A stretch of DNA of 64,000 nt from Bacteroidales bacterium (GTDB taxonomy: Bacteria > Bacteroidota > Bacteroidia > Bacteroidales > UBA12077), in NCBI GenBank assembly GCA_030611105.1, contig JAUWQL010000004.1:867-64866 (forward strand). The letters run 5' to 3'. This document shows positions 2,989-54,540 of the stretch, piece after piece (the first letter of the stretch is position 1; each line of letters begins with the position of its first letter). Under the pieces are notes generated by a model. It was not told the origin of the DNA. It made no database searches and was given only the letters and a program-made list of their open reading frames with translations. Made by a program: the position numbers and the translations under genes.

Positions 2989-5097
2989 ATGGTTGATAAT
3001 AAACAAAATAGCAAAAAGCCAATTAATAGGCCAGGTTCAGATAAACCAAAACCAAAATTTAATGTTTACTGGATTTATGGATTAATAGCAGTAGTCTTTA
3101 TTGGATTACAACTTTTAAGTTTTACGCCAAAACCAACTGAAATTTCAATGCAGGAGTTTGAGCGTAATATGCTTAAAAACGGAGACGTTGCAAAAATTGT
3201 AGTTGTTAATAAAGAAAGAGCGAATATTTATATTAAAAAAGATCGATTAACCGATGCAAGGTATAAGGACTTACTTGAAAATAAGTTTGCTCGTACTTCT
3301 GAAGATGGACCACATTTTTTCTTCACCATTGGTTCAATGGAATATTTTGAGCGATGGATAAGCGAAGCTCAGGAGGATTATTTAAGAGGGGAGTATATAG
3401 AAATTAGTTATAAATCGCAACCTAATTATATGCGTGATATTATTGGATGGTTACTTCCAATATTTATTATTTTGGCTATATGGCTTTTTATTTTTAGAAG
3501 AATGTCGAAAGGTGGCGGTGGCCCCGGTGGAGGTAATATATTTAGTGTTGGCAAATCAAAAGCTCAGCTTTTTGATAAAGAAAGCGATATAAAAGTCGAC
3601 TTTAAGGATGTGGCTGGTTTAGAAGAGGCCAAAGTTGAAGTTCGCGAAATAGTTGATTTTTTAAAAACACCAAAAAAATACACAGATCTTGGAGCTAAGA
3701 TTCCAAAAGGAGTTCTTCTGGTTGGCCCTCCTGGAACAGGTAAAACATTAATGGCAAAAGCTGTTGCCGGCGAAGCTAATGTTCCTTTCTTTTCAATGTC
3801 GGGTTCCGATTTTGTTGAAATGTTTGTTGGAGTTGGGGCTTCGCGTGTTCGCGATTTATTTAAGCAAGCAAAAGAAAAAGCTCCATGTATCATTTTTATT
3901 GATGAGATTGATGCTATTGGTCGGGCTCGTGGAAGAAATCCAAATTTTGGTGCTAACGATGAACGTGAAAATACTTTAAACCAGTTATTGACCGAAATGG
4001 ATGGTTTTAGCAATAATGTTGGTGTAATAATTATGGCTGCTACAAATCGTGCTGATATTCTTGATAAAGCTTTAATGAGAGCAGGCCGTTTCGACCGTCA
4101 AATACATCTTGAGTTACCGGATATTAACGAACGAAGAGATATTTTCAAGGTACATTTAAAACCAATTAAAATGGAAAAAAACCTTGATATTGATTTTCTG
4201 GCAAAACAAACACCGGGATTTTCGGGTGCTGATATTGCTAATGTTTGTAACGAATCGGCATTAATAGCAGCCCGTAAGGAAAAGAAGACTGTTGAGCGCC
4301 AGGATTTTCTTGATGCAGTTGACAGGATAGTTGGTGGCATGGAGCGCAAAACCAAAATTATTACTAAAGAAGAAAAACGAACCATTGCATTTCACGAAGC
4401 AGGCCATGCCACTGTAAGTTGGCTGTTAGAGCATGCTCATCCTCTGGTAAAAGTAACTATTATTCCTCGCGGACGTTCATTGGGTGCTGCCTGGTATTTA
4501 CCCGAAGAAAGACAAATTACAACACGTGATCAGTTATTGGACGAAATGTGTGCTGCCCTTGGCGGAAGAGTTTCAGAAGAGTTGATGTTTGGGAAAATAT
4601 CGACAGGAGCAATGAATGATCTGGAAAAAATAACCAAGCAGGCTTATGCTATGATTGCGTATTTTGGAATGAGTGAAAAAGTGGGGCATGTGAGTTTTTA
4701 CGATTCTTCCGGTCAAACTGATATGACATTTACAAAGCCTTATAGCGAAAAAACTGCTGAACTTATTGATAAAGAAGTTAAGAATTTGATTGAAGAAGCT
4801 TATAAGCGTTCTTTTGAAATCTTAAAAAAACACAAAGATGGCTTAACTAAACTTGCAGAAATCCTTTTAGAAAAAGAAGTTATTTTCGCCGAAGACCTTG
4901 AAAAGATTTTTGGTAAACGTCCATGGAAAACTCAACATGAGAAGGAAGCCGAAGTAAGAAAGGAGCTTGAAGAGAAAAAGAAAAATAATAAATCTGCCCG
5001 CCAGTCTGCCTTGCCTCGCCGGCAGGCAGGCGACAAGGCAGGTCCGTCAGGAAGAAAAACAAAAGCTAAAAACCCTGTAAGCAAAAAGGGTAAGTAG
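2989..5097 (+). CDS. ftsH: ATP-dependent zinc metalloprotease FtsH
   Basis: Two TM segments, [20 protein letters not shown]; the C-terminal tail carries a 63-nt repeat insertion. Confidence 0.97.
4993..5055. repeat. Three nested 21-nt CCTR-hairpin elements in frame in ftsH
   Basis: Inner 5010-5030 cttg-cctcgcc-ggca-ggcagg; middle 5001-5009+5031-5042 (RC cctg-ccttgtc-ggca-gactgg); outer, decayed, 4993-5000+5043-5055. Confidence 0.75.
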
Positions 5098-19548: not shown

Positions 19549-19590
19549 CAACGCGCATTTCTACCTGTCGGCAGACAGGCCTGCGCGTTG
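19549..19590. repeat. GC-rich hairpin with a 20-nt CCTR-hairpin element (19560-19579) in its loop
   Basis: caacgcgca-tt-[tcta-cctgtc-ggca-gacagg]-cc-tgcgcgttg. Confidence 0.78.
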
Positions 19591-47951: not shown

Positions 47952-47963
47952 AATTTGATAGAT

Positions 47964-50393
47964 ATGAAAAAAATAACTTTTTTATTACTTGCAACAATTT
48001 TAACAGGATCATGCTTGAATAAAGATAATAACATAAAAGATTATCCTGTTAAACCGGTAGCCTTTACAAACGTAAAATTTACAGACAATTTCTGGCTCCC
48101 ACGGTTAGATACAAATAGAATTATTACCATTCCTTATGATTTTAAAAAGTGTGAAGAGACTCATAGAATTGACAATTTTGCAATTGCAGGAGGATTACAG
48201 GAAGGATCTTTTGTAGGAATCAGATATAATGATTCCGATGTTTTTAAAGTTATAGAAGGAGCATCATACTCGTTGAATATCCATCCTGATCCGGAATTAG
48301 AAAAGTATTTAGATGGTTTAATTGCAAAAATTGCTGCAGCACAGGAAGATGATGGTTATTTATATACTTGCAGAACCATAAATCCCGACAGTTTACCACG
48401 GCATACAGGAGATACAAAATGGTCGCAATTAAAAGACAGTCACGAACTTTATAATATAGGACACATGTACGAAGCTGCCGTTGCATATTATCGGGCAACC
48501 GGTAAAAAATCTTTATTAGATGTAGCAATTAAGAGCGCAAATTTAGTTAATGAAATTTTCGGACCGGGCAAAGATCAGTTACATGGGGTTCCCGGGCATC
48601 AGGAAATAGAAATGGGCTTAGTAAAATTATACAGAGTTACTGCTGATGAAAAGTACTTAAAACTTGCCAAATATTTCTTAGATCAAAGAGGAAATGCCAA
48701 TGGCCATGAACTATACGTTTATGGCGAAGATGGAAATAACAAAGTATATACTCAGGATCATAAACTGGTTACTGAACAATTTGAAGCTATAGGGCACGCA
48801 GTAAGAGCCGTTTATATGTATTCCGGAATGGCAGATATTGCTGCTCTTACAAACGATAAAAAATACAATTCAGCAATTGATATTTTATGGAATAATGTAG
48901 TATCGAAAAAATTATATATTACCGGAGGAATTGGTTCTAAACATGCAGGTGAAGCATTTGGTGAAAATTACCATTTACCAAACCTGAGTGCTTATAACGA
49001 AACCTGTGCTGCTGTTGCCAATATGCTATGGAATCAAAGAATGTTCTTATTAAACGGAGATGCAAAATATATTGATGTTTTAGAACGTACTCTTTATAAC
49101 GGATTTCTTTCGGGAGTTTCAATTCACGGTGATAAATTTTTCTATCCGAATCCACTAGAATCTGATGGTAGCCACCAAAGAAAACCATGGTTTAGTTGCT
49201 CGTGTTGCCCTACAAATGTTGTTCGCTTTTTACCATCATTACCCGGATATGTTTATGCACACACAAAAGATGATTTATTTATAAATCTGTATATCGGGAA
49301 TAAGGCAAATATTAATATGAATTTCGGGGAAATAAGTATATCGCAAAGCACCGATTATCCTTGGGACGGAAATGTAAAAATCAATATTGAACCTGAAACC
49401 AAATCTAAATTTACTGTATCGTTAAGAATTCCGGGATGGGCTCAAAACAAACCCGTACCATCTGATTTATATTGTTATATGAATGAATCGGATCTGAAAG
49501 CTGTAATTAAAATCAATAACAAAGAAACTTCATACAATATTACCAATGGATATGCTAAAATAAACAGACAGTGGGAAAAAGGAGATATTATAGAAATTAA
49601 TTTCCCGATGCCTGTACGAAAAGTTGTTGCAAACAAAAAAGTTGAGGAAGATAAAGGGAAATTTTCTATTGAAAGAGGCCCTTTGGTATATTGTGCTGAA
49701 TGGCTTGATAATGGAGGGAAAGTACGAAATCTGTTATTAGATAAAAATACTGATTTTACATATGAATTTAAAGAAAACCTAATTAACGGTGTTAATATTT
49801 TAAGAGGAATGTCAAAATCGTTATCCATCGATAAAGCAGGTAATTCTACAATAGAAACAGAACAAGATTTTATTGCTATTCCATATTATGCATGGGCTCA
49901 CAGGGGGAATGGCGAAATGACAGTGTGGTTTCCGTACGAAAAATCGGCAACTAACCCGACTCCACCACCAACTATAGCATCTGAAAGCAAGGTGTCTGCA
50001 TCTTATATTTACGATCAAGTTTTGGCAGTTAACGACCAGATTAATCCTAAAAACTCTAACGATCATGATATTCCAAGGTTAACATTTTGGGATCATAAAG
50101 GAACAACAGAATGGGTACAATATGATTTTAAAGAAGAAACAATAATTAGTAATATTCATATATATTGGTTCGATGATGGGCCTGATGGTGGTTGCAGAGT
50201 TCCTGAAACATGGAAGGTAACATATCTGAAAAACGGTGAATGGAAAGAAATATCAACACATGGTGAATATCCGGTTTTAAAAGATGAGTTTACTTCTATC
50301 GAAATTTCTAACGTAAGAACAAAATCGATGAAGTTAGAAATTAAACTACAGGAAAACTTTTCCGGGGGTATTCTCGAATGGAAACTTGATTAA
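47964..50393 (+). CDS. GH127 family glycoside hydrolase (lipoprotein) with C-terminal extra domain
   Basis: Lipobox TGSC; DSDVFK, HELYN, GHAVR, YNETCA, CSCCPTN, RGPLVY, IPYYAW. Confidence 0.92.
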   Translation: MKKITFLLLATILTGSCLNKDNNIKDYPVKPVAFTNVKFTDNFWLPRLDTNRIITIPYDFKKCEETHRIDNFAIAGGLQEGSFVGIRYNDSDVFKVIEGASYSLNIHPDPELEKYLDGLIAKIAAAQEDDGYLYTCRTINPDSLPRHTGDTKWSQLKDSHELYNIGHMYEAAVAYYRATGKKSLLDVAIKSANLVNEIFGPGKDQLHGVPGHQEIEMGLVKLYRVTADEKYLKLAKYFLDQRGNANGHELYVYGEDGNNKVYTQDHKLVTEQFEAIGHAVRAVYMYSGMADIAALTNDKKYNSAIDILWNNVVSKKLYITGGIGSKHAGEAFGENYHLPNLSAYNETCAAVANMLWNQRMFLLNGDAKYIDVLERTLYNGFLSGVSIHGDKFFYPNPLESDGSHQRKPWFSCSCCPTNVVRFLPSLPGYVYAHTKDDLFINLYIGNKANINMNFGEISISQSTDYPWDGNVKINIEPETKSKFTVSLRIPGWAQNKPVPSDLYCYMNESDLKAVIKINNKETSYNITNGYAKINRQWEKGDIIEINFPMPVRKVVANKKVEEDKGKFSIERGPLVYCAEWLDNGGKVRNLLLDKNTDFTYEFKENLINGVNILRGMSKSLSIDKAGNSTIETEQDFIAIPYYAWAHRGNGEMTVWFPYEKSATNPTPPPTIASESKVSASYIYDQVLAVNDQINPKNSNDHDIPRLTFWDHKGTTEWVQYDFKEETIISNIHIYWFDDGPDGGCRVPETWKVTYLKNGEWKEISTHGEYPVLKDEFTSIEISNVRTKSMKLEIKLQENFSGGILEWKLD

Positions 50394-50405
50394 TTCTTAA
50401 ACATA

Positions 50406-50445
50406 TCTACCTGTCGCCTACCTGACGGCAGTCAGGGTAAACAGG
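50406..50445 (+). repeat. Nested pair of 20-nt CCTR-hairpin elements
   Basis: tctacctgtcg[cctacctgacggcagtcagg]gtaaacagg. Confidence 0.85.
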
Positions 50446-50466
50446 CAATAGAATGATTATATCAAA

Positions 50467-50561
50467 AATATCAAATATCGAACAAGGAATAATGAATTAC
50501 GAAGTAAAAAAATGAAGTAAAAATTTCATTATTCGATATTCGGTGTTCATTATTCGATATT
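50467..50561. repeat. Inverted heptad-periodic repeat
   Basis: aatatca aatatcg aacaagg aataatg aattacg; RC of right arm aatatcg aataatg aacaccg aatatcg aataatg. Confidence 0.7.
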
Positions 50562-50603
50562 TATAAATAACAGAACATGAATGAACTATAAAAATATAAA
50601 CAG

Positions 50604-51719
50604 ATGAAAGGAAACATTTTAAAATTCGCATTATTCTTTTTGTTAATATCAATTTTTTCTTGTACAAGAGAAAACAAAAACAACAATATGAAAAAAGAAT
50701 TAAAAACCTTTATCCTGTCGAATAAAACCAATTGTTCTGTTAAAATTACAAATTTCGGGGCAAAAGTTATGTCAATAAATGTGCCTGATAAGAATGGTAA
50801 TATTGATGATGTTGTATTAAGCTACAATACTCCTGAAGAATATATTAGTGGAAATCCATACTTTGGAGCAATAATAGGACGATACGGAAACCGGATTAAT
50901 AAAGGGAAATTTGTTTTAAACAACACGGAATATTCTTTAGCTACCAACAACGGCAACAACCATCTTCATGGTGGGCCAAATGGTTTTCATAATGTAATTT
51001 GGGAGGTGGTAGAATATAAAAACGATGATGATCAACATTTTGTAAAATTCAAATATTTCAGTAAAGATGGCGAAGAAGGATATCCGGGCAATTTAACTGT
51101 TTATGTAAAATATTCATTTACCAACGAAAATGAATTAATAATTGATTATGATGCTACATGCGATAAAACTACAATTATTAATCTTACTCATCATTCATTT
51201 TTCAATCTTAAAGATGCAGGAAAATCTGATATTCTTGAACATGAGTTTAAAATTTTTGCCGACAGTTATACTCCTGTAAACAATGAACTAATTCCTACAG
51301 GACAAATACTAAAAGTAAAAGAAACTCCAATGGACTTCACTAAATTTACAACTATAGGCAAACGAATTAACGAGGAATATGTACAGCTTCAATATGGAAA
51401 AGGCTATGATCATAACTGGGTTTTAAATAAAATATCAGATTCATTAAGCTTGGCTGCAATTGTTCGTGAGCCTGTTTCGGGCAGAAAAATGGAAGTATTT
51501 ACTACAGAACCGGGATTACAATTCTACTCCGGCAACTTTCTTGATGGTTCCGATATTGGAGAAGACAGTACAAAATATAATCACAGAACTGCATTTTGTC
51601 TGGAGACACAACATTTTCCTGATTCTCCAAATCATAAAAATTTTCCATCAACAGTACTTGAGGCAGGGAAAGCATATAAACAAAAAACGATATATAAATT
51701 TTCAACCTATCTGCCCTGA
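50604..51719 (+). CDS. galM: Aldose 1-epimerase (galactose mutarotase)
   Basis: GRYGNRI, HLHGG, EEGYPG, NLTHHSFFNL, YDHNW, CLETQHFPDSPN. Confidence 0.93.
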   Translation: MKGNILKFALFFLLISIFSCTRENKNNNMKKELKTFILSNKTNCSVKITNFGAKVMSINVPDKNGNIDDVVLSYNTPEEYISGNPYFGAIIGRYGNRINKGKFVLNNTEYSLATNNGNNHLHGGPNGFHNVIWEVVEYKNDDDQHFVKFKYFSKDGEEGYPGNLTVYVKYSFTNENELIIDYDATCDKTTIINLTHHSFFNLKDAGKSDILEHEFKIFADSYTPVNNELIPTGQILKVKETPMDFTKFTTIGKRINEEYVQLQYGKGYDHNWVLNKISDSLSLAAIVREPVSGRKMEVFTTEPGLQFYSGNFLDGSDIGEDSTKYNHRTAFCLETQHFPDSPNHKNFPSTVLEAGKAYKQKTIYKFSTYLP

Positions 51720-51745
51720 CTGCCGTTAGGCAGGCGATAGGCAAG
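51706..51745 (-). repeat. Nested pair of 20-nt CCTR-hairpin elements supplying the galM stop codon
   Basis: RC cttgcctatcg[cctgcctaacggcagtcagg]gcagatagg. Confidence 0.85.
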
Positions 51746-51763
51746 ATAATTAAATAAACAATT

Positions 51764-53329
51764 ATGGATTTTGGAACTATAGATTTCATAGTATTTGCTT
51801 CGTATTTACTCCTAATAATTTTTATTGGTTTGTGGGTATCACGAACAAAAAAGGGCGAAAAGAAAACCTCGTCAGATTATTTTCTGGCAAGTAAATCGTT
51901 ACCATGGTGGGCAATTGGGGCATCGCTTATAGCAGCAAATATTTCTGCCGAGCAATTTATTGGAATGTCGGGTTCGGGATATGTTATTGGTTTAGGAATA
52001 GCTTCTTACGAATGGATGGCAGCAATTACATTAATTATTGTTGCAAAATATTTCTTACCTATATTTCTTGAAAAAGGAATTTATACCATGCCTCAATTTC
52101 TCGAATTAAGATTTGATAACAGAGTTAGAACAAGCCTTGCTGTATTTTGGTTGTTAGTTTACATTTTTGTAAATCTTACATCGGTGCTTTATTTAGGCGC
52201 ATTAGCATTACAAACCATAATTGGAGTAAAGTTAATATACGGCATTATTGGTTTGGCTCTTTTTTCGGCAATTTATTCAATTTATGGTGGATTAAAAGCA
52301 GTAGCATGGACAGATGTTGTTCAGGTAATATTCTTAATTGGAGGTGGATTAGTTACAACATATTTGGCTTTGGATTATTTAGGTGGTGAAAAAGGTGCTT
52401 TTGCCGGTTTTGGAAATTTGTTACATCAGGTTCCCGAGAAATTCGATATGATACTTGATAAGACACACTCAAATTACCCTGAATTACCGGGTATATGGGT
52501 TATATTAGGTGGTATGTGGATAGCGAATATAAGTTATTGGGGATGTAATCAATATATAATTCAACGAGCTTTAGCTGCTAAAAGCCTTAAAGAAGCACAA
52601 AGAGGCTTAGTTTTTTCGGGATTTTTGAAGATAATTATTCCATTAATTGTTGTAATACCTGGTATTGCAGCTTTTGCACTTAATGCCGACATTACAAAAC
52701 CCGATGAGGCGTATCCATGGTTATTAGACACTTTTGTTGTATCAGGACTAAAAGGATTAGCATTTGCTGCTCTGATTGCAGCTGTAGTATCGTCATTAAG
52801 CTCGATGATAAACAGTACTTCTACGATTTTTACAATGGATATCTATAAAAATTATTTCAATAAAAATGCTTCTGAAACAAACCTGGTTACAACAGGTAGA
52901 ATTACAAGCGGAGCAGCGTTATTAGTAGCTGTATTAGTCGCCCCACAACTTGTAACACTCGAACAGGCATTTCAATTTATTCAGGAATTTACCGGTTTTG
53001 TAAGTCCCGGAATTGTTGCAATATTTATTGTAGGATTATTCTGGAAAAGAGCAACATCAAATTCAGTTCTTTGGGCAGCACTAACAACAGTTCCATTATC
53101 GTTTGGATTTAAATTTTTAACTCCCGATATGGCATTTCTTAACAGAATGGGATTTGTATTTCTTATTTTATTGGCTATAATATTTTTCATTTCAATAATT
53201 GAAAGCAAAACAGATGACCCTAAAGGAATAGATATTAGCAAAAAACTATTTCATACAGGTACAAAATTTAATATATCTGCAATAGGTATTTTAATTATTT
53301 TATCTGTTTTATATACTTTATTTTGGTAA
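51764..53329 (+). CDS. Sodium/sugar symporter (SSS family)
   Basis: DYFLASKSLPWW, NISAEQFIGMSG, YWGCNQYIIQRALAAK. Confidence 0.93.
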   Translation: MDFGTIDFIVFASYLLLIIFIGLWVSRTKKGEKKTSSDYFLASKSLPWWAIGASLIAANISAEQFIGMSGSGYVIGLGIASYEWMAAITLIIVAKYFLPIFLEKGIYTMPQFLELRFDNRVRTSLAVFWLLVYIFVNLTSVLYLGALALQTIIGVKLIYGIIGLALFSAIYSIYGGLKAVAWTDVVQVIFLIGGGLVTTYLALDYLGGEKGAFAGFGNLLHQVPEKFDMILDKTHSNYPELPGIWVILGGMWIANISYWGCNQYIIQRALAAKSLKEAQRGLVFSGFLKIIIPLIVVIPGIAAFALNADITKPDEAYPWLLDTFVVSGLKGLAFAALIAAVVSSLSSMINSTSTIFTMDIYKNYFNKNASETNLVTTGRITSGAALLVAVLVAPQLVTLEQAFQFIQEFTGFVSPGIVAIFIVGLFWKRATSNSVLWAALTTVPLSFGFKFLTPDMAFLNRMGFVFLILLAIIFFISIIESKTDDPKGIDISKKLFHTGTKFNISAIGILIILSVLYTLFW

Positions 53330-53385
53330 AACAAGTAACCTATAATAACGCAGAAGTTTGCATTTTTAGAGGTTGCCATAATTTT

Positions 53386-54540
53386 ATGATAAAAGAAAAA
53401 ATTTACAAGCAATTTAAAGCAAAATTCGAAGGTGAACCAATAATGGTAGAGTCGCCGGGAAGAATAAATCTTATAGGTGAACATACTGATTATAACGATG
53501 GATTTGTTCTCCCTGCTGCTATAGATAAATACATTTATATAGCAATAAATAAATCTGAAGATAATTCGTGCAATGTATTTTCATGCGATTTTAATGAATC
53601 TGTTACATTTCAGATAGATACGCAACAGAAATCTGAAAAACACTGGGCAAATTATTTAATAGGTGTTATTAATGAAATTGGTAACAGAGGAAAAAAGTTA
53701 AATGGTTTCAATCTTGTTTTTGGAGGAAATATACCAATCGGTACAGGATTATCATCATCGGCTGCCTTGGAAACAGGTTTGGCTTTTGCTTTAAACAAAC
53801 TATTTAATCTGGGATTCAATACACTTGAACTAATAAAAATGTCGCAAGATGCCGAAAATAATTTTGTAGGTGTAAATTGCGGAATTATGGATCAGTTTGC
53901 TGCAATAATGGGCAAAAAAAATCATTTTGTAAAACTCGATTGCCGAAGTCTGGAATTCGAATACTTTCCTTTTAAAACCGATAACTATCAACTATTACTC
54001 TGCAATAGTAATGTTAAACATAGTTTGGTAGATTCGGAATATAACGACAGAAGACTGGAATGCGAAAAAGGAGTGAAAATATTAAGTAGGTATTTAAATA
54101 ATATTACCAAATTACGTGATGTTTCATCGGAGGAATTGGAAAACCATAAGGCAGATTTTCCCATAAGTACATACGAGAAATGCTCTTATGTAATCGAAGA
54201 AAACTCAAGACTAATCGAAGCGTGCGAGCAACTAAACAATAAAAACTTAAGCTATGTCGGGAAGTTGATGTATGAAACTCACGAGGGTTTAAAAAATAAA
54301 TATAAAGTAAGTTGTAGCGAACTTGACTTTCTTGTCGATTTTACAAAACAATACAATGAAATACCAGGCTCAAGAATGATGGGTGGAGGATTTGGAGGTT
54401 GTACTATTAATCTCATAAACAAAGATTTTAAGAAAGATTTTATTCAGCTAATTTCTGAAGCATATAAAGAGAAATTTAATATCGAAGCCGAATTTTATAA
54501 TATTAATATTGTTGATGGCACAAGAATAATCGAAATATAG
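53386..54540 (+). CDS. galK: Galactokinase
   Basis: PGRINLIGEHTDYN, PIGTGLSSSAA, CGIMDQ, GSRMMGGGFGGC. Confidence 0.95.
   Translation: MIKEKIYKQFKAKFEGEPIMVESPGRINLIGEHTDYNDGFVLPAAIDKYIYIAINKSEDNSCNVFSCDFNESVTFQIDTQQKSEKHWANYLIGVINEIGNRGKKLNGFNLVFGGNIPIGTGLSSSAALETGLAFALNKLFNLGFNTLELIKMSQDAENNFVGVNCGIMDQFAAIMGKKNHFVKLDCRSLEFEYFPFKTDNYQLLLCNSNVKHSLVDSEYNDRRLECEKGVKILSRYLNNITKLRDVSSEELENHKADFPISTYEKCSYVIEENSRLIEACEQLNNKNLSYVGKLMYETHEGLKNKYKVSCSELDFLVDFTKQYNEIPGSRMMGGGFGGCTINLINKDFKKDFIQLISEAYKEKFNIEAEFYNINIVDGTRIIEI

Follow-up and report, generated by a model that had tools for sequence, protein, structure and literature searches.

The window analysed here comprises 64,000 nucleotides of a Bacteroidales MAG, and in it the gene galM lies between two inverted 40-bp sequences, each of which has the form of one short palindrome placed inside another. 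The locus thereby raises the question whether this pair serves the gene or is two independent arrivals of one small repeat, and how a repeat comes to lie inside itself at the same base on both sides. GalM (aldose 1-epimerase, 371 aa; 50604..51719, + strand; Pfam PF01263, 302 bits) is preceded by a GH127 beta-L-arabinofuranosidase-like gene (812 aa; 47955..50393, + strand) and followed by a gene of the sodium:solute symporter family (51764..53329, + strand); galactokinase is next (53323-54540). Doublet A (50406..50445, + strand) begins 12 nt past the stop of the GH127 gene and consists of an outer left half (50406-50416), an inner 20-mer (50417-50436) and an outer right half (50437-50445). Doublet B (51706..51745, unit on the - strand) has its outer left half at 51735-51745, its inner 20-mer at 51715-51734 and its outer right half at 51706-51714. 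The final codons of galM and its TGA stop (51717-51719) fall within this doublet, whose end is separated by 18 nt from the symporter start codon downstream. The galM C-terminus ...KFSTYLP* is encoded by doublet B, and homologues stop 2-4 residues past KF. The whole gap from doublet A to the galM start codon is occupied by a second dispersed repeat of ~150 bp (50446..50603, no strand assigned), which is unrelated to the 20-mer; on C196 and C146, blastn against the own genome finds copies of 84-87% identity, with weaker ones elsewhere. Contig depth shows a spike at 50420-50547 in 4/4 runs.

Doublet A reads TCTACCTGTCGCCTACCTGACGGCAGTCAGGGTAAACAGG, and the reverse complement of doublet B reads CTTGCCTATCGCCTGCCTAACGGCAGTCAGGGCAGATAGG. 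A recount agrees with the earlier note: the two are identical at 31/40 positions and all nine differences are transitions (positions 1, 2, 4, 8, 15, 19, 33, 35 and 37), seven in the outer 20 and two in the inner 20, with the same 11+20+9 split in A and B. The longest uninterrupted identity is 13 bp. Four of the seven outer differences, read from the aligned outer units, form two compensatory pairs, outer positions 4/13 pairing as A-T in A but as G-C in B, and outer positions 8/17 as G-C in A but as A-T in B; these four differences are therefore not independent decay events. The insertion point carries a 1-nt ambiguity, the alternative reading being a unit permuted by one G that enters between C10 and G11. 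Doublet A adopts a nested hairpin fold (RNA -17.0 kcal/mol, z -2.99; DNA -8.0 kcal/mol, z -2.64). Logan contigs of two public runs, which may be the window's source sample, cover both doublets with 0 differences. With at most 3 mismatches, the 20-mer is present in 3 copies in the 64-kb window against 0.00 expected (100 shuffles), and its presence is thus not due to chance. Doublets A and B are nested copies of one 20-nt G+C-rich hairpin repeat. A single unit, TCTACCTGTCGGCAGACAGG (19560..19579, + strand), occupies the tip of a foreign hairpin of 9 bp in which 19549-19557 pairs with 19582-19590; it has the T1/A4 variant in common with the outer unit of doublet A.

In the source genome (31.5% GC), the family with the consensus CCTGCCTGNCGGCAGNCAGG occupies 86 loci at up to 3 mismatches, 35 of them perfect. 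Its spread is extragenic: ORFs of at least 150 aa make up 84% of the genome, though just 9/88 hits lie inside them, and 45/88 are situated within 150 bp downstream of a stop codon. Copies occur in both orientations relative to the upstream gene. Most elements (69/87) are singlets, and several units lie among short tandem repeats (e.g. C135, C50, C170). The folding energy of the single 20-mer is -9.3 kcal/mol (z -3.6) for RNA and -5.8 kcal/mol (z -4.8) for DNA, and two registers 4 nt apart are possible, pairing positions 1-6 with 11-16 or 5-10 with 15-20. Positions 9 and 16 are complementary in 73/83 units (A/T 27, T/A 27, C/G 19) and define subfamilies; a variant with A3 and T14 (C195, C151, C51, C152) preserves the other register. 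In the 5' tail, CCTG, every position is conserved in 58-63 of 67 oriented units.

The nesting is base-precise. The 11+20+9 split is found in 13/14 doublets of the source genome and likewise in 13/14 doublets from 7 other genomes of the genus, where the search pattern permitted any split. Among 80 fetched loci from MAGs of ~16 phylum-level groups, 46 have the canonical 11+20+9 form, and 40/43 clear doublets in other phyla split at 11 or at the mirror position 9; flanks of the 11+9 type arise by chance at 7.5e-05 per site. Exceptions are one doublet of the source genome (C19) and one elsewhere (L120), both split ~8+12. Splits are thus random neither in the genome nor in the genus nor in other phyla, and the base-precise nesting proposed in the earlier note stands. 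Inner and outer units belong to unlike subfamilies (positions 9/16) in 12/14 doublets, including both at galM, so that the inner unit came from elsewhere. The same note had younger copies entering older ones. In favour of this, outer units differ from the family consensus at 0-5 positions (mean ~2.7) and inner units at 0-2 (mean ~0.4), and 11/14 inner units belong to the A/T subfamily; against it, the outer divergence at galM partly reflects covarying subfamily state and not age. Six elements possess an extra right half without a left half, the reverse case occurring in none, a pattern that simple insertion leaves unexplained.

Doublets also vary as wholes. Contig X3, of a near-identical strain, joins 51703 directly to 51745, skipping 41 nt, with 1 other letter over the 156 nt past the joint; this empty site is one short contig (187 nt, depth ~4) known from its joint coordinates rather than its letters, and the gap, 51704-51744, is offset by 1-2 nt from the 40-mer of doublet B. 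Contig X4 joins 51706 to 51755. Doublet B as a whole is present or absent between strains, by a change that may have been an insertion or a precise excision. A pattern search of JGI metagenomes for the flanks of doublet B at a gap of 0-30 nt, i.e. an empty or an outer-only allele, returned 0 stretches. The outer variant GCTTGCCA...GCAGGCAAG always occurs with an inner unit, at 3 loci in the source genome and 3 in G002. Identical 40-mers with 4 outer changes (L070, L106) are present in one Desulfotomaculum MAG and one Omnitrophota MAG, so that one diverged 40-mer is shared across two phyla, in unrelated flanks. Doublets therefore appear to travel as one piece besides forming by nesting. Precise site choice and movement of the doublet as a unit had been posed as alternatives; both appear to hold, the former from the subfamily mismatches and the latter from the empty-site contig and the recurrent diverged 40-mers.

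The 20-mer is probably a tiny non-autonomous mobile element of the REP or small-dispersed-repeat kind, a judgement that leaves the mobilising enzyme aside. New copies would preferentially insert at DNA hairpin tips, presumably by way of a single-stranded hairpin intermediate. Flanks that pair perfectly over at least 7 bp surround 8/85 elements, compared with 0.4% of random sites. Where the target is a resident copy, entry would take place at one phosphodiester, between G11 and G12, and in the same orientation, yielding the 11+20+9 doublet, which could afterwards be copied or lost as one piece. A and B would then be separate events at gene ends, A just past the GH127 stop and B in the last codons of galM, which it would re-terminate, the two forming no functional pair. 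Single copies show neither a conserved target nor a target duplication: of 53, 23 have G and 18 have A at position -1. A target rule of the IS608 type was rejected since no conserved tetranucleotide precedes the single copies.

Nested forms could also grow in place, without any transfer of DNA from one locus to another, if the CCTG/CAGG-rich arms were duplicated through local slippage or with a hairpin as template. In formal terms, a nested doublet amounts to a tandem duplication of both its arms, some extra right halves are identical to the first (three in C115, two each in C38 and C82), and C39:179, L083 and L072 contain runs of (CCTG)n...(CAGG)n. However, local copying cannot produce the unlike subfamilies of inner and outer units that both galM doublets display, nor does it account for one diverged 40-mer in unrelated flanks of two phyla or for a whole doublet that is present or absent between strains; for the two galM copies growth in place is largely refuted, and as a general account we regard it as very improbable. 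A further reading is that the hairpins are kept for use by the cell, as 3' protection of mRNA, for the decoupling of genes or as a protein-binding site, and owe their spread to function more than to selfish copying. Compensatory changes in both pairing registers, the position of about half the copies shortly past a stop and the galM stop codon inside doublet B agree with such a role, and REPs near stop codons reportedly reduce translation in E. coli, a finding ascribed to Liang, Rudd and Deutscher in 2015. The copies nevertheless occur in both orientations relative to the upstream gene, B is absent in a related strain, identical sequence is present in ~16 phylum-level groups and in viral contigs, and the doublets lack a T-run (CAATAG follows A, GATAAT follows B on the + strand). 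Since, moreover, 0 terminator-like sites were called in 50300-51900, a function as intrinsic terminators was rejected. An Rfam scan of 50300-51850 (E up to 1) gave a chance-level RNase P of 14 bits inside galM as its sole match. We consider host selection as the main cause of the spread unlikely; host function and mobility do not exclude each other.

The inverted arrangement itself invites a reading as a device on galM, be it an inversion switch, the ends of a composite mobile unit or RNA segments that pair across the message, and the earlier note had suggested inversion and long-range mRNA pairing. The copies are inverted, 1.26 kb apart and have one gene between them, and if carried by a single transcript, the two could pair at 31 Watson-Crick and 4 G-U positions of 40, as counted from the alignment. 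Yet 4 pairs of units lie within 1.5 kb of each other where 2.7 are expected (P 0.29), and the bracketing of galM by two copies fits chance. In the X3 contig, from which B is absent, the end of galM runs on into the symporter side, so that the related strain keeps galM beside the symporter gene without the pair. RecA recombination usually requires ~25 bp of identity, which the 13 bp in common to A and B fall short of. Nothing indicates inversion, the contig joints of four runs listing no strand-changing joint in 50100-52000, which carries little weight because contigs drop rare variants. Pairing across the mRNA is not supported either, each copy folding stably by itself. A galM homologue is present in only 6/24 sampled genomes of the genus, at up to 49% identity, and no conserved surroundings are therefore seen at galM. 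With its chance spacing, its short exact match and a strain contig without B, the locus resembles neither a composite transposon nor an invertible segment, and a device on galM is hardly credible. Inverted copies flanking a gene thus need not be a switch. For annotation, a further point is that hairpins can rewrite gene ends, galM having received a new C-terminus and stop codon.

Near-identical 20-mers are present in uncultured Bacteroidota, CPR/Patescibacteria, Planctomycetota, Nitrospirota, Acidobacteriota, Omnitrophota and others, as well as in viral contigs; a 0.9-Mb Saccharibacteria MAG contains 10 units. The perfect doublet has only chance-level matches among 72,556 plasmids and none among 50,697 phage records. 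Identical sequence in so many groups and in viral contigs points to transfer and not to a host-specific function. We tentatively entertain, while inclining slightly against it, the wider view of the 20-mer as a pan-bacterial micro-element that spreads horizontally, represents the smallest kind of mobile DNA and integrates at hairpin tips including its own through machinery not yet linked to it (a promiscuous Y1 enzyme or something undescribed), repeated self-entry producing multi-level nested palindromes that spread as new elements. Near-identity across phyla, tiny CPR genomes and viral contigs could mean that micro-elements cross phylum borders, or that they rely on a widely shared host activity.

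Among known repeats, the small dispersed repeats (SDRs) of Nostocaceae, reportedly described by Elhai et al. in 2008, are said to be mobile, 21-27 nt long, nested in one another and situated among short tandem repeats. Tobes and Pareja, whose work is cited in PMC3116915, are said to have reported in 2006 that IS1397 and ISKpn1 target REP loops. These insertion sequences likewise direct their insertion at the loop of a palindromic repeat, but they are full-size and encode their own transposase, whereas the incoming DNA here is another 20-nt hairpin. With SDRs the 20-mer shares its very small size, its mobility and the base-precise entry into a palindrome, a likeness of behaviour only; its hosts, which are not cyanobacteria, differ, as its sequence presumably does, and its target is its own hairpin. 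Elhai 2015 (PMC4390886) places the insertion of Nostocaceae SDR5 exactly between nucleotides 3 and 4 of the HIP1 palindrome, and PMC5861425 reports SDRs only from Nostocaceae. [quoted passage not shown] Unlike in REPINs, one unit lies inside another here, in the same orientation and at 11+20+9. The idea of the doublet as replicating unit agrees with its absence as a whole from one strain contig and with the recurrence of diverged 40-mers, yet singlets prevail (69/87). The word 'nested' has 0 occurrences in the text of PMC6006769, PMC3733652 and PMC12306157. Three exact 20-mers gave 0 occurrences in a full-text literature search; the supplementary REP tables of PMC6006769 and PMC3733652 might list the motif. 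Movement and site choice of REP-like repeats are still largely inferred, and a 20-nt element specifying to the base where it integrates offers a simple substrate, in which one oligonucleotide is both donor and target and the 40-mer product is easily detected.

The units are, like REPs, short, imperfect, extragenic G+C-rich hairpins in tens of copies, and one RAYT-type gene here is flanked by two of them. This gene (G000:C181:40490-41017) scores 97.5 bits against NF047646 (cut-off 80) and lies between two units, 44 bp upstream and 58 bp downstream, each on the opposite strand from the gene; a RAYT gene on G008:C1 has the same two-sided layout. In Quentin et al. 2018 (PMC6006769), TnpA-Y1 subclass 2.6 of Bacteroidetes has the motifs NH[LIV]H, WQ and YIH[QN]NP, its genes have at their flanks 'atypical secondary structures' that recur elsewhere in the genome, and its REPs are said to be without GT[AG]G. 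The protein here, with SHIH, WQ and YLHNNP, comes close to these subclass motifs. The units differ from REPs (Quentin et al. 2018; Messing et al. 2012, PMC3479197) in having no GT[AG]G foot but a 5' tail of CCTG. They differ further in that the copies flanking the gene are direct instead of inverted, that most related RAYT genes lack a unit and that one 20-mer occurs in many phyla. The self-nesting 20-mer is accordingly filed as a variant within the REP/SDR kind of repeats.

As mobilising enzyme, the leading candidate is a trans-acting HUH/Y1 transposase of the RAYT type, an assignment that is possible but doubtful. Y1-family matches are present in 28/28 unit-bearing relatives against 8/13 unit-free ones, and RAYT homologues in 19/28 against 2/13, both comparisons being uncorrected for kinship. 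Against it, 28/30 loci with RAYT homologues in relatives have no flanking unit, several having other palindromes, and the two unit-flanked genes are not orthologues, the G008 gene resembling one on G000:C27 without an adjacent unit. Numbers of units and of RAYT genes are uncorrelated in the genus (rho 0.07); G015 possesses 2 RAYT homologues and no unit, while G002 and G022 (genomes 71% and 78% complete) lack a RAYT homologue and yield more than 40 unit hits. The Saccharibacteria MAG lacks a Y1 match despite its 10 units, and in contrast to the REP-RAYT co-evolution described in print, the 20-mer is identical across many phyla. Units may adjoin RAYT genes merely since those genes are hairpin-flanked. 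Five viral records with at least 3 units, all fragments (28-83% complete), yielded neither a Y1 nor a GIY-YIG match. Two other enzymes were dropped as mobilisers: an IS200-like (subclass 1.2-like) gene, with a unit in 0/30 such loci of relatives, and a small GIY-YIG nuclease, with a unit within 60 bp in only 2/17 small GIY-YIG genes of six genomes. By rough estimate ~5% of genes in the source genome adjoin a unit by chance. One IS200-like gene of the source genome (C21) has a unit 69 bp upstream, and on G033:C217 a unit together with an 82-aa GIY-YIG gene is present twice in tandem.

The 20-nt unit, with the genome-wide consensus CCTGCCTGNCGGCAGNCAGG, occurs at 86 loci (≤3 mismatches, 35 of them perfect) in the host genome, which comprises 3.77 Mb in 217 contigs at 31.5% G+C and carries the window on contig C9; the metagenomes listed as containing window DNA are from cold seeps and marine sediments. 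Unit copies are extragenic: 9 of 88 matches lie inside ORFs of ≥150 aa, though such ORFs cover 84% of the genome, and 45 of 88, facing either way, lie ≤150 bp past a stop codon. In 73 of 83 copies the letter at position 9 can pair with that at position 16 (A/T 27, T/A 27, C/G 19), and this covariation supports a stem of positions 5-10/15-20 with the loop GGCA, while a variant with A3 and T14 (contigs C195, C151, C51 and C152) keeps a second stem, 1-6/11-16. With one stem preserved by the 9/16 complementarity and the other by the A3/T14 variant, the unit has two folding registers, offset by 4 nt; in its C/G form it is a perfect palindrome over all 20 bp.

Within the window, the inner 20-mer is matched three times at ≤3 mismatches (0.00 expected), the third copy being a single unit at 19560-19579. 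The galM locus consists, in order, of a GH127 gene (+, stop at 50393), doublet A (50406-50445, +), a dispersed repeat of ~150 bp unrelated to the unit (50446-50603), galM (+), doublet B (51706-51745, minus strand) overlapping the galM stop, a symporter gene (+, start at 51764) and galK (+). Both doublets are reproduced without difference in Logan contigs of two public runs, perhaps from the window's own sample. Alignment bears out their description in the earlier note: both have the geometry 11+20+9, the outer 11+9 letters forming a second copy of the inner 20-mer, and doublet A is identical to the reverse complement of doublet B at 31 of 40 positions, with nine differences, transitions without exception, seven in the outer and two in the inner 20 positions.

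Nesting is base-precise. With all flank splits tried at each unit of the own genome, 14 units have flanks that make a second unit (chance rate at random sites 7.5e-05), and the split is 11+9 in 13 of them, the exception being a doublet on contig C19 split at ~8+12. An any-split pattern (CCTG, 0-16 nt, unit, 0-16 nt, CAGG) retrieved 14 doublets in 7 other genomes among 37 of the genus, 13 with identical junctions. The same pattern, applied to one genome per prokaryotic species, gave at least 123 stretches; 80 loci were examined, and among the matches listed 46 of these are canonical 11+20+9 doublets when read on the appropriate strand, the remaining non-canonical loci being mostly chance flanks. 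A first pass placed 40 of 43 clear doublets among the matches listed at split 11 or 9, split 9 being the mirror of split 11 for the near-palindromic C/G form. A G on either side leaves the nesting site with a 1-nt ambiguity. One split dominates in the genome, the genus and other species, and therefore the random nesting elsewhere in the genome that would speak against the earlier note's base-precise site choice is not what is found.

In 12 of the 14 own-genome doublets the inner unit belongs to another subfamily, as defined by positions 9/16, than the outer one; over all 14, the inner unit is A/T in 11, the outer T/A in 6, C/G in 5 and A/T in 3. Because local duplication cannot yield differing inner and outer subfamilies, the inner units came in from other loci. 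That younger copies entered older ones agrees with the mismatches to consensus (0-5 in outer, 0-2 in inner units), but the contrast at galM is only partly to be read in this way. Of 89 family-wide departures from consensus, 51 are transitions, 49 of these G:C to A:T; assuming independent changes, nine transitions out of nine would have P ~0.007. They are not independent, since outer positions 4/13 (A-T in copy A, G-C in copy B) and 8/17 (G-C in copy A, A-T in copy B) each keep one stem. Copy A's outer unit is one change from TCTACCTGTCGGTAGACAGG, a form with both stems perfect that is also the outer unit of a Stahlbacteria MAG locus (L060) and, with one further change, of a WOR-3 MAG locus (L097). 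Given the covarying stem pairs and the occurrence of this form elsewhere, the 7-versus-2 contrast reflects a subfamily difference as well as age. In the own-genome doublets the outer units, the more distant from consensus, show 26 transitions to 6 transversions.

In a contig of the public metagenome run X3, which is short, of low depth and known by its joint coordinates, not its letters, 51703 is joined straight to 51745 (with 31 and 156 letters to either side of the joint and one other letter) and the whole of doublet B is absent; the gap, 51704-51744, is 1-2 nt off the ends of the 40-mer. Insertion of doublet B and its precise loss are indistinguishable in this allele. Its predicted galM end is ...KFSIIK*, with TAA at 51755, and galM homologues stop 2-4 residues past KF, as the X3 allele would. 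In a further run, X4, a contig has three other letters bridging 51706 and 51755. The outer variant GCTTGCCA...GCAGGCAAG, with a compensatory C6-to-T/G19-to-A pair, always contains an inner unit and occurs at three loci in the own genome and three in another compared genome, G002. Identical 40-mers with four outer changes are shared by a Desulfotomaculum MAG (L070) and an Omnitrophota MAG (L106) in unrelated flanks. The X3 empty site, the recurring variant and the shared 40-mer suggest that doublets, once formed, act as elements in their own right, in line with the earlier proposal that the doublet moves as a unit.

The bracketing of galM is concluded to be coincidental, the outcome of two insertions that both fell at gene ends, since 4 unit pairs lie ≤1.5 kb apart where 2.7 are expected (P 0.29), A and B share exact matches of at most 13 bp, and no terminator-like sites are called at the locus; neither doublet is followed by a T-run. 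The changed galM C-terminus and stop at doublet B are the sole local effect shown, and the hairpin may also influence galM translation or the downstream gene. The repeat at 50446-50603 fills the whole gap from doublet A to the galM start codon, ending at the ATG, and may carry the galM promoter; copies are 84-87% identical on contigs C196 and C146 and weaker on C140, C28 and C215, and in four metagenome runs its contig depth exceeds that of the flanks by a factor of tens to hundreds.

At ≤1 mismatch, 22 of the 24 genus members sampled carry units, as do 5 of 16 other families in the order. Canonical doublets occur in at least ~16 phylum-level groups, counted from record titles: Bacteroidota, Actinomycetota, delta-proteobacterial/Syntrophaceae, Stahlbacteria, Balneolaceae, Neomarinimicrobiota, Desulfotomaculum, several CPR lineages, Planctomycetales, Nitrospirota, Auribacterota, WOR-3, Spirochaetaceae, Methylomirabilota, Omnitrophota and Terriglobia. 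All hosts among the matches listed are MAGs. Mis-binning is an unlikely cause of the spread, because flank G+C content differs greatly among loci. IMG/VR contigs contain 78 stretches with the unit, some several times, and a search of plasmids and phages of cultured hosts for the doublet gave nothing real.

Nine Y1-transposase matches are found in the own genome. One, of 176 aa (C181:40490-41017), scores 97.5 bits against the NCBIfam model of REP-associated tyrosine transposases (RAYT; cut-off 80), has motifs fitting Bacteroidetes subclass 2.6 in the relevant parts of Quentin et al. (PMC6006769), and is flanked by units 44 bp upstream and 58 bp downstream, each lying antisense to the gene. A homologue in genome G008 is arranged likewise, within direct repeats of ≥130 bp. 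Among 41 relatives, uncorrected for kinship, some Y1 match is present in 28/28 unit-bearing versus 8/13 unit-free genomes, and RAYT homologues in 19/28 versus 2/13. Several results speak against a link: the flanked C181 and G008 genes are not orthologues, 28 of 30 RAYT-homologue loci are without a unit, several having other palindromes, unit numbers within the genus are uncorrelated with RAYT numbers (rho 0.07), and in five other-phylum MAGs (9 to ~99 units) a unit is near just 2 of 15 RAYT-type loci, whose proteins bear no relation to those of the Bacteroidales. Units near RAYT genes may simply have landed in RAYT-flanking hairpins. No Y1 match was found in a unit-bearing Saccharibacteria MAG. 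The RAYT is a candidate enzyme, its link to the unit being inconsistent across genomes. Two alternatives, small GIY-YIG genes and IS200-like genes, were examined and dropped. Genome G033 contains a tandem pair of a perfect C/G unit followed after 19 nt by the gene of an 82-aa GIY-YIG nuclease (C217:28330-28910; L192:731-1311), the two proteins being nearly identical. Three own-genome Y1 genes of 144-156 aa (C21:7272-7703, C111:10575-11042, C183:2783-3217) have the motif YI(K/L)NQ.EHH, which the relevant parts of Quentin et al. (PMC6006769) give for subclass 1.2 of Cyanobacteria and Bacteroidetes, with no REP known.

In behaviour, REP/RAYT systems and the small dispersed repeats (SDRs) of Nostocaceae are closest; a section of PMC4390886 describes the latter as inserting precisely into the palindrome HIP1. 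Unlike classical REPs, the unit lacks the GT[AG]G feature, and the doublet differs in geometry from the REPIN, an inverted REP pair, and so is not one. The three 20-mers have no occurrence in the full-text literature searched, supplementary tables and Elhai 2008 being outside this scope, and the portions of the REP literature examined, likewise exclusive of supplementary tables, make no mention of self-nesting. No prior description of the unit sequence was found, and the element is best regarded as of a known kind, REP/SDR-like, in a new form. What most deserves further attention is its cross-phylum spread and the machinery that integrates it.

Perfectly pairing flanks (≥7 bp within 4 nt of the ends) surround 8 of 85 elements, against 0.4% of random sites; the single copy at 19560 has CAACGCGCA on one side and TGCGCGTTG on the other. 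Hairpin tips in general seem to be preferred targets. Neither a conserved target nor a target duplication was seen at single copies. Six elements are accompanied by a surplus right half GCAGNCAGG that has no left counterpart, and the reverse form was seen in none; one or two such halves follow units at C115:11572, C38:16762, C82:10878 and C27:9966 of the own genome. Many single units lie within runs of 7-8-nt tandem repeats (GTTTCAAG, CTTTAAA, AGTAAAA and similar) that continue on both sides (C135:22142, C50:8667, C170:19566, C39:7253 and 11618, C74:20396), surroundings that resemble the heptamer repeats around cyanobacterial SDRs. The window contains a related composite G+C-rich palindrome (4996-5050, ...TCTGCCTTGCCTCGCCGGCAGGCAGGCGACAAGGCAGG...), and similar 40-mers with an inner unit of 21 nt are present on contigs C29, C59 and C198. 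Tandem unit arrays occur in genome G034 (C250:3098-3159 and C219:4232-4475), one with three copies spaced at 21 bp, the other with three at 112 bp. Palindromes made of the unit's halves are nested to at least three levels in a Bacteroidales (L072) and a Kuenenbacteria (L095) MAG locus, and in the own genome C57:4738-4797 has the look of a triple that has decayed.
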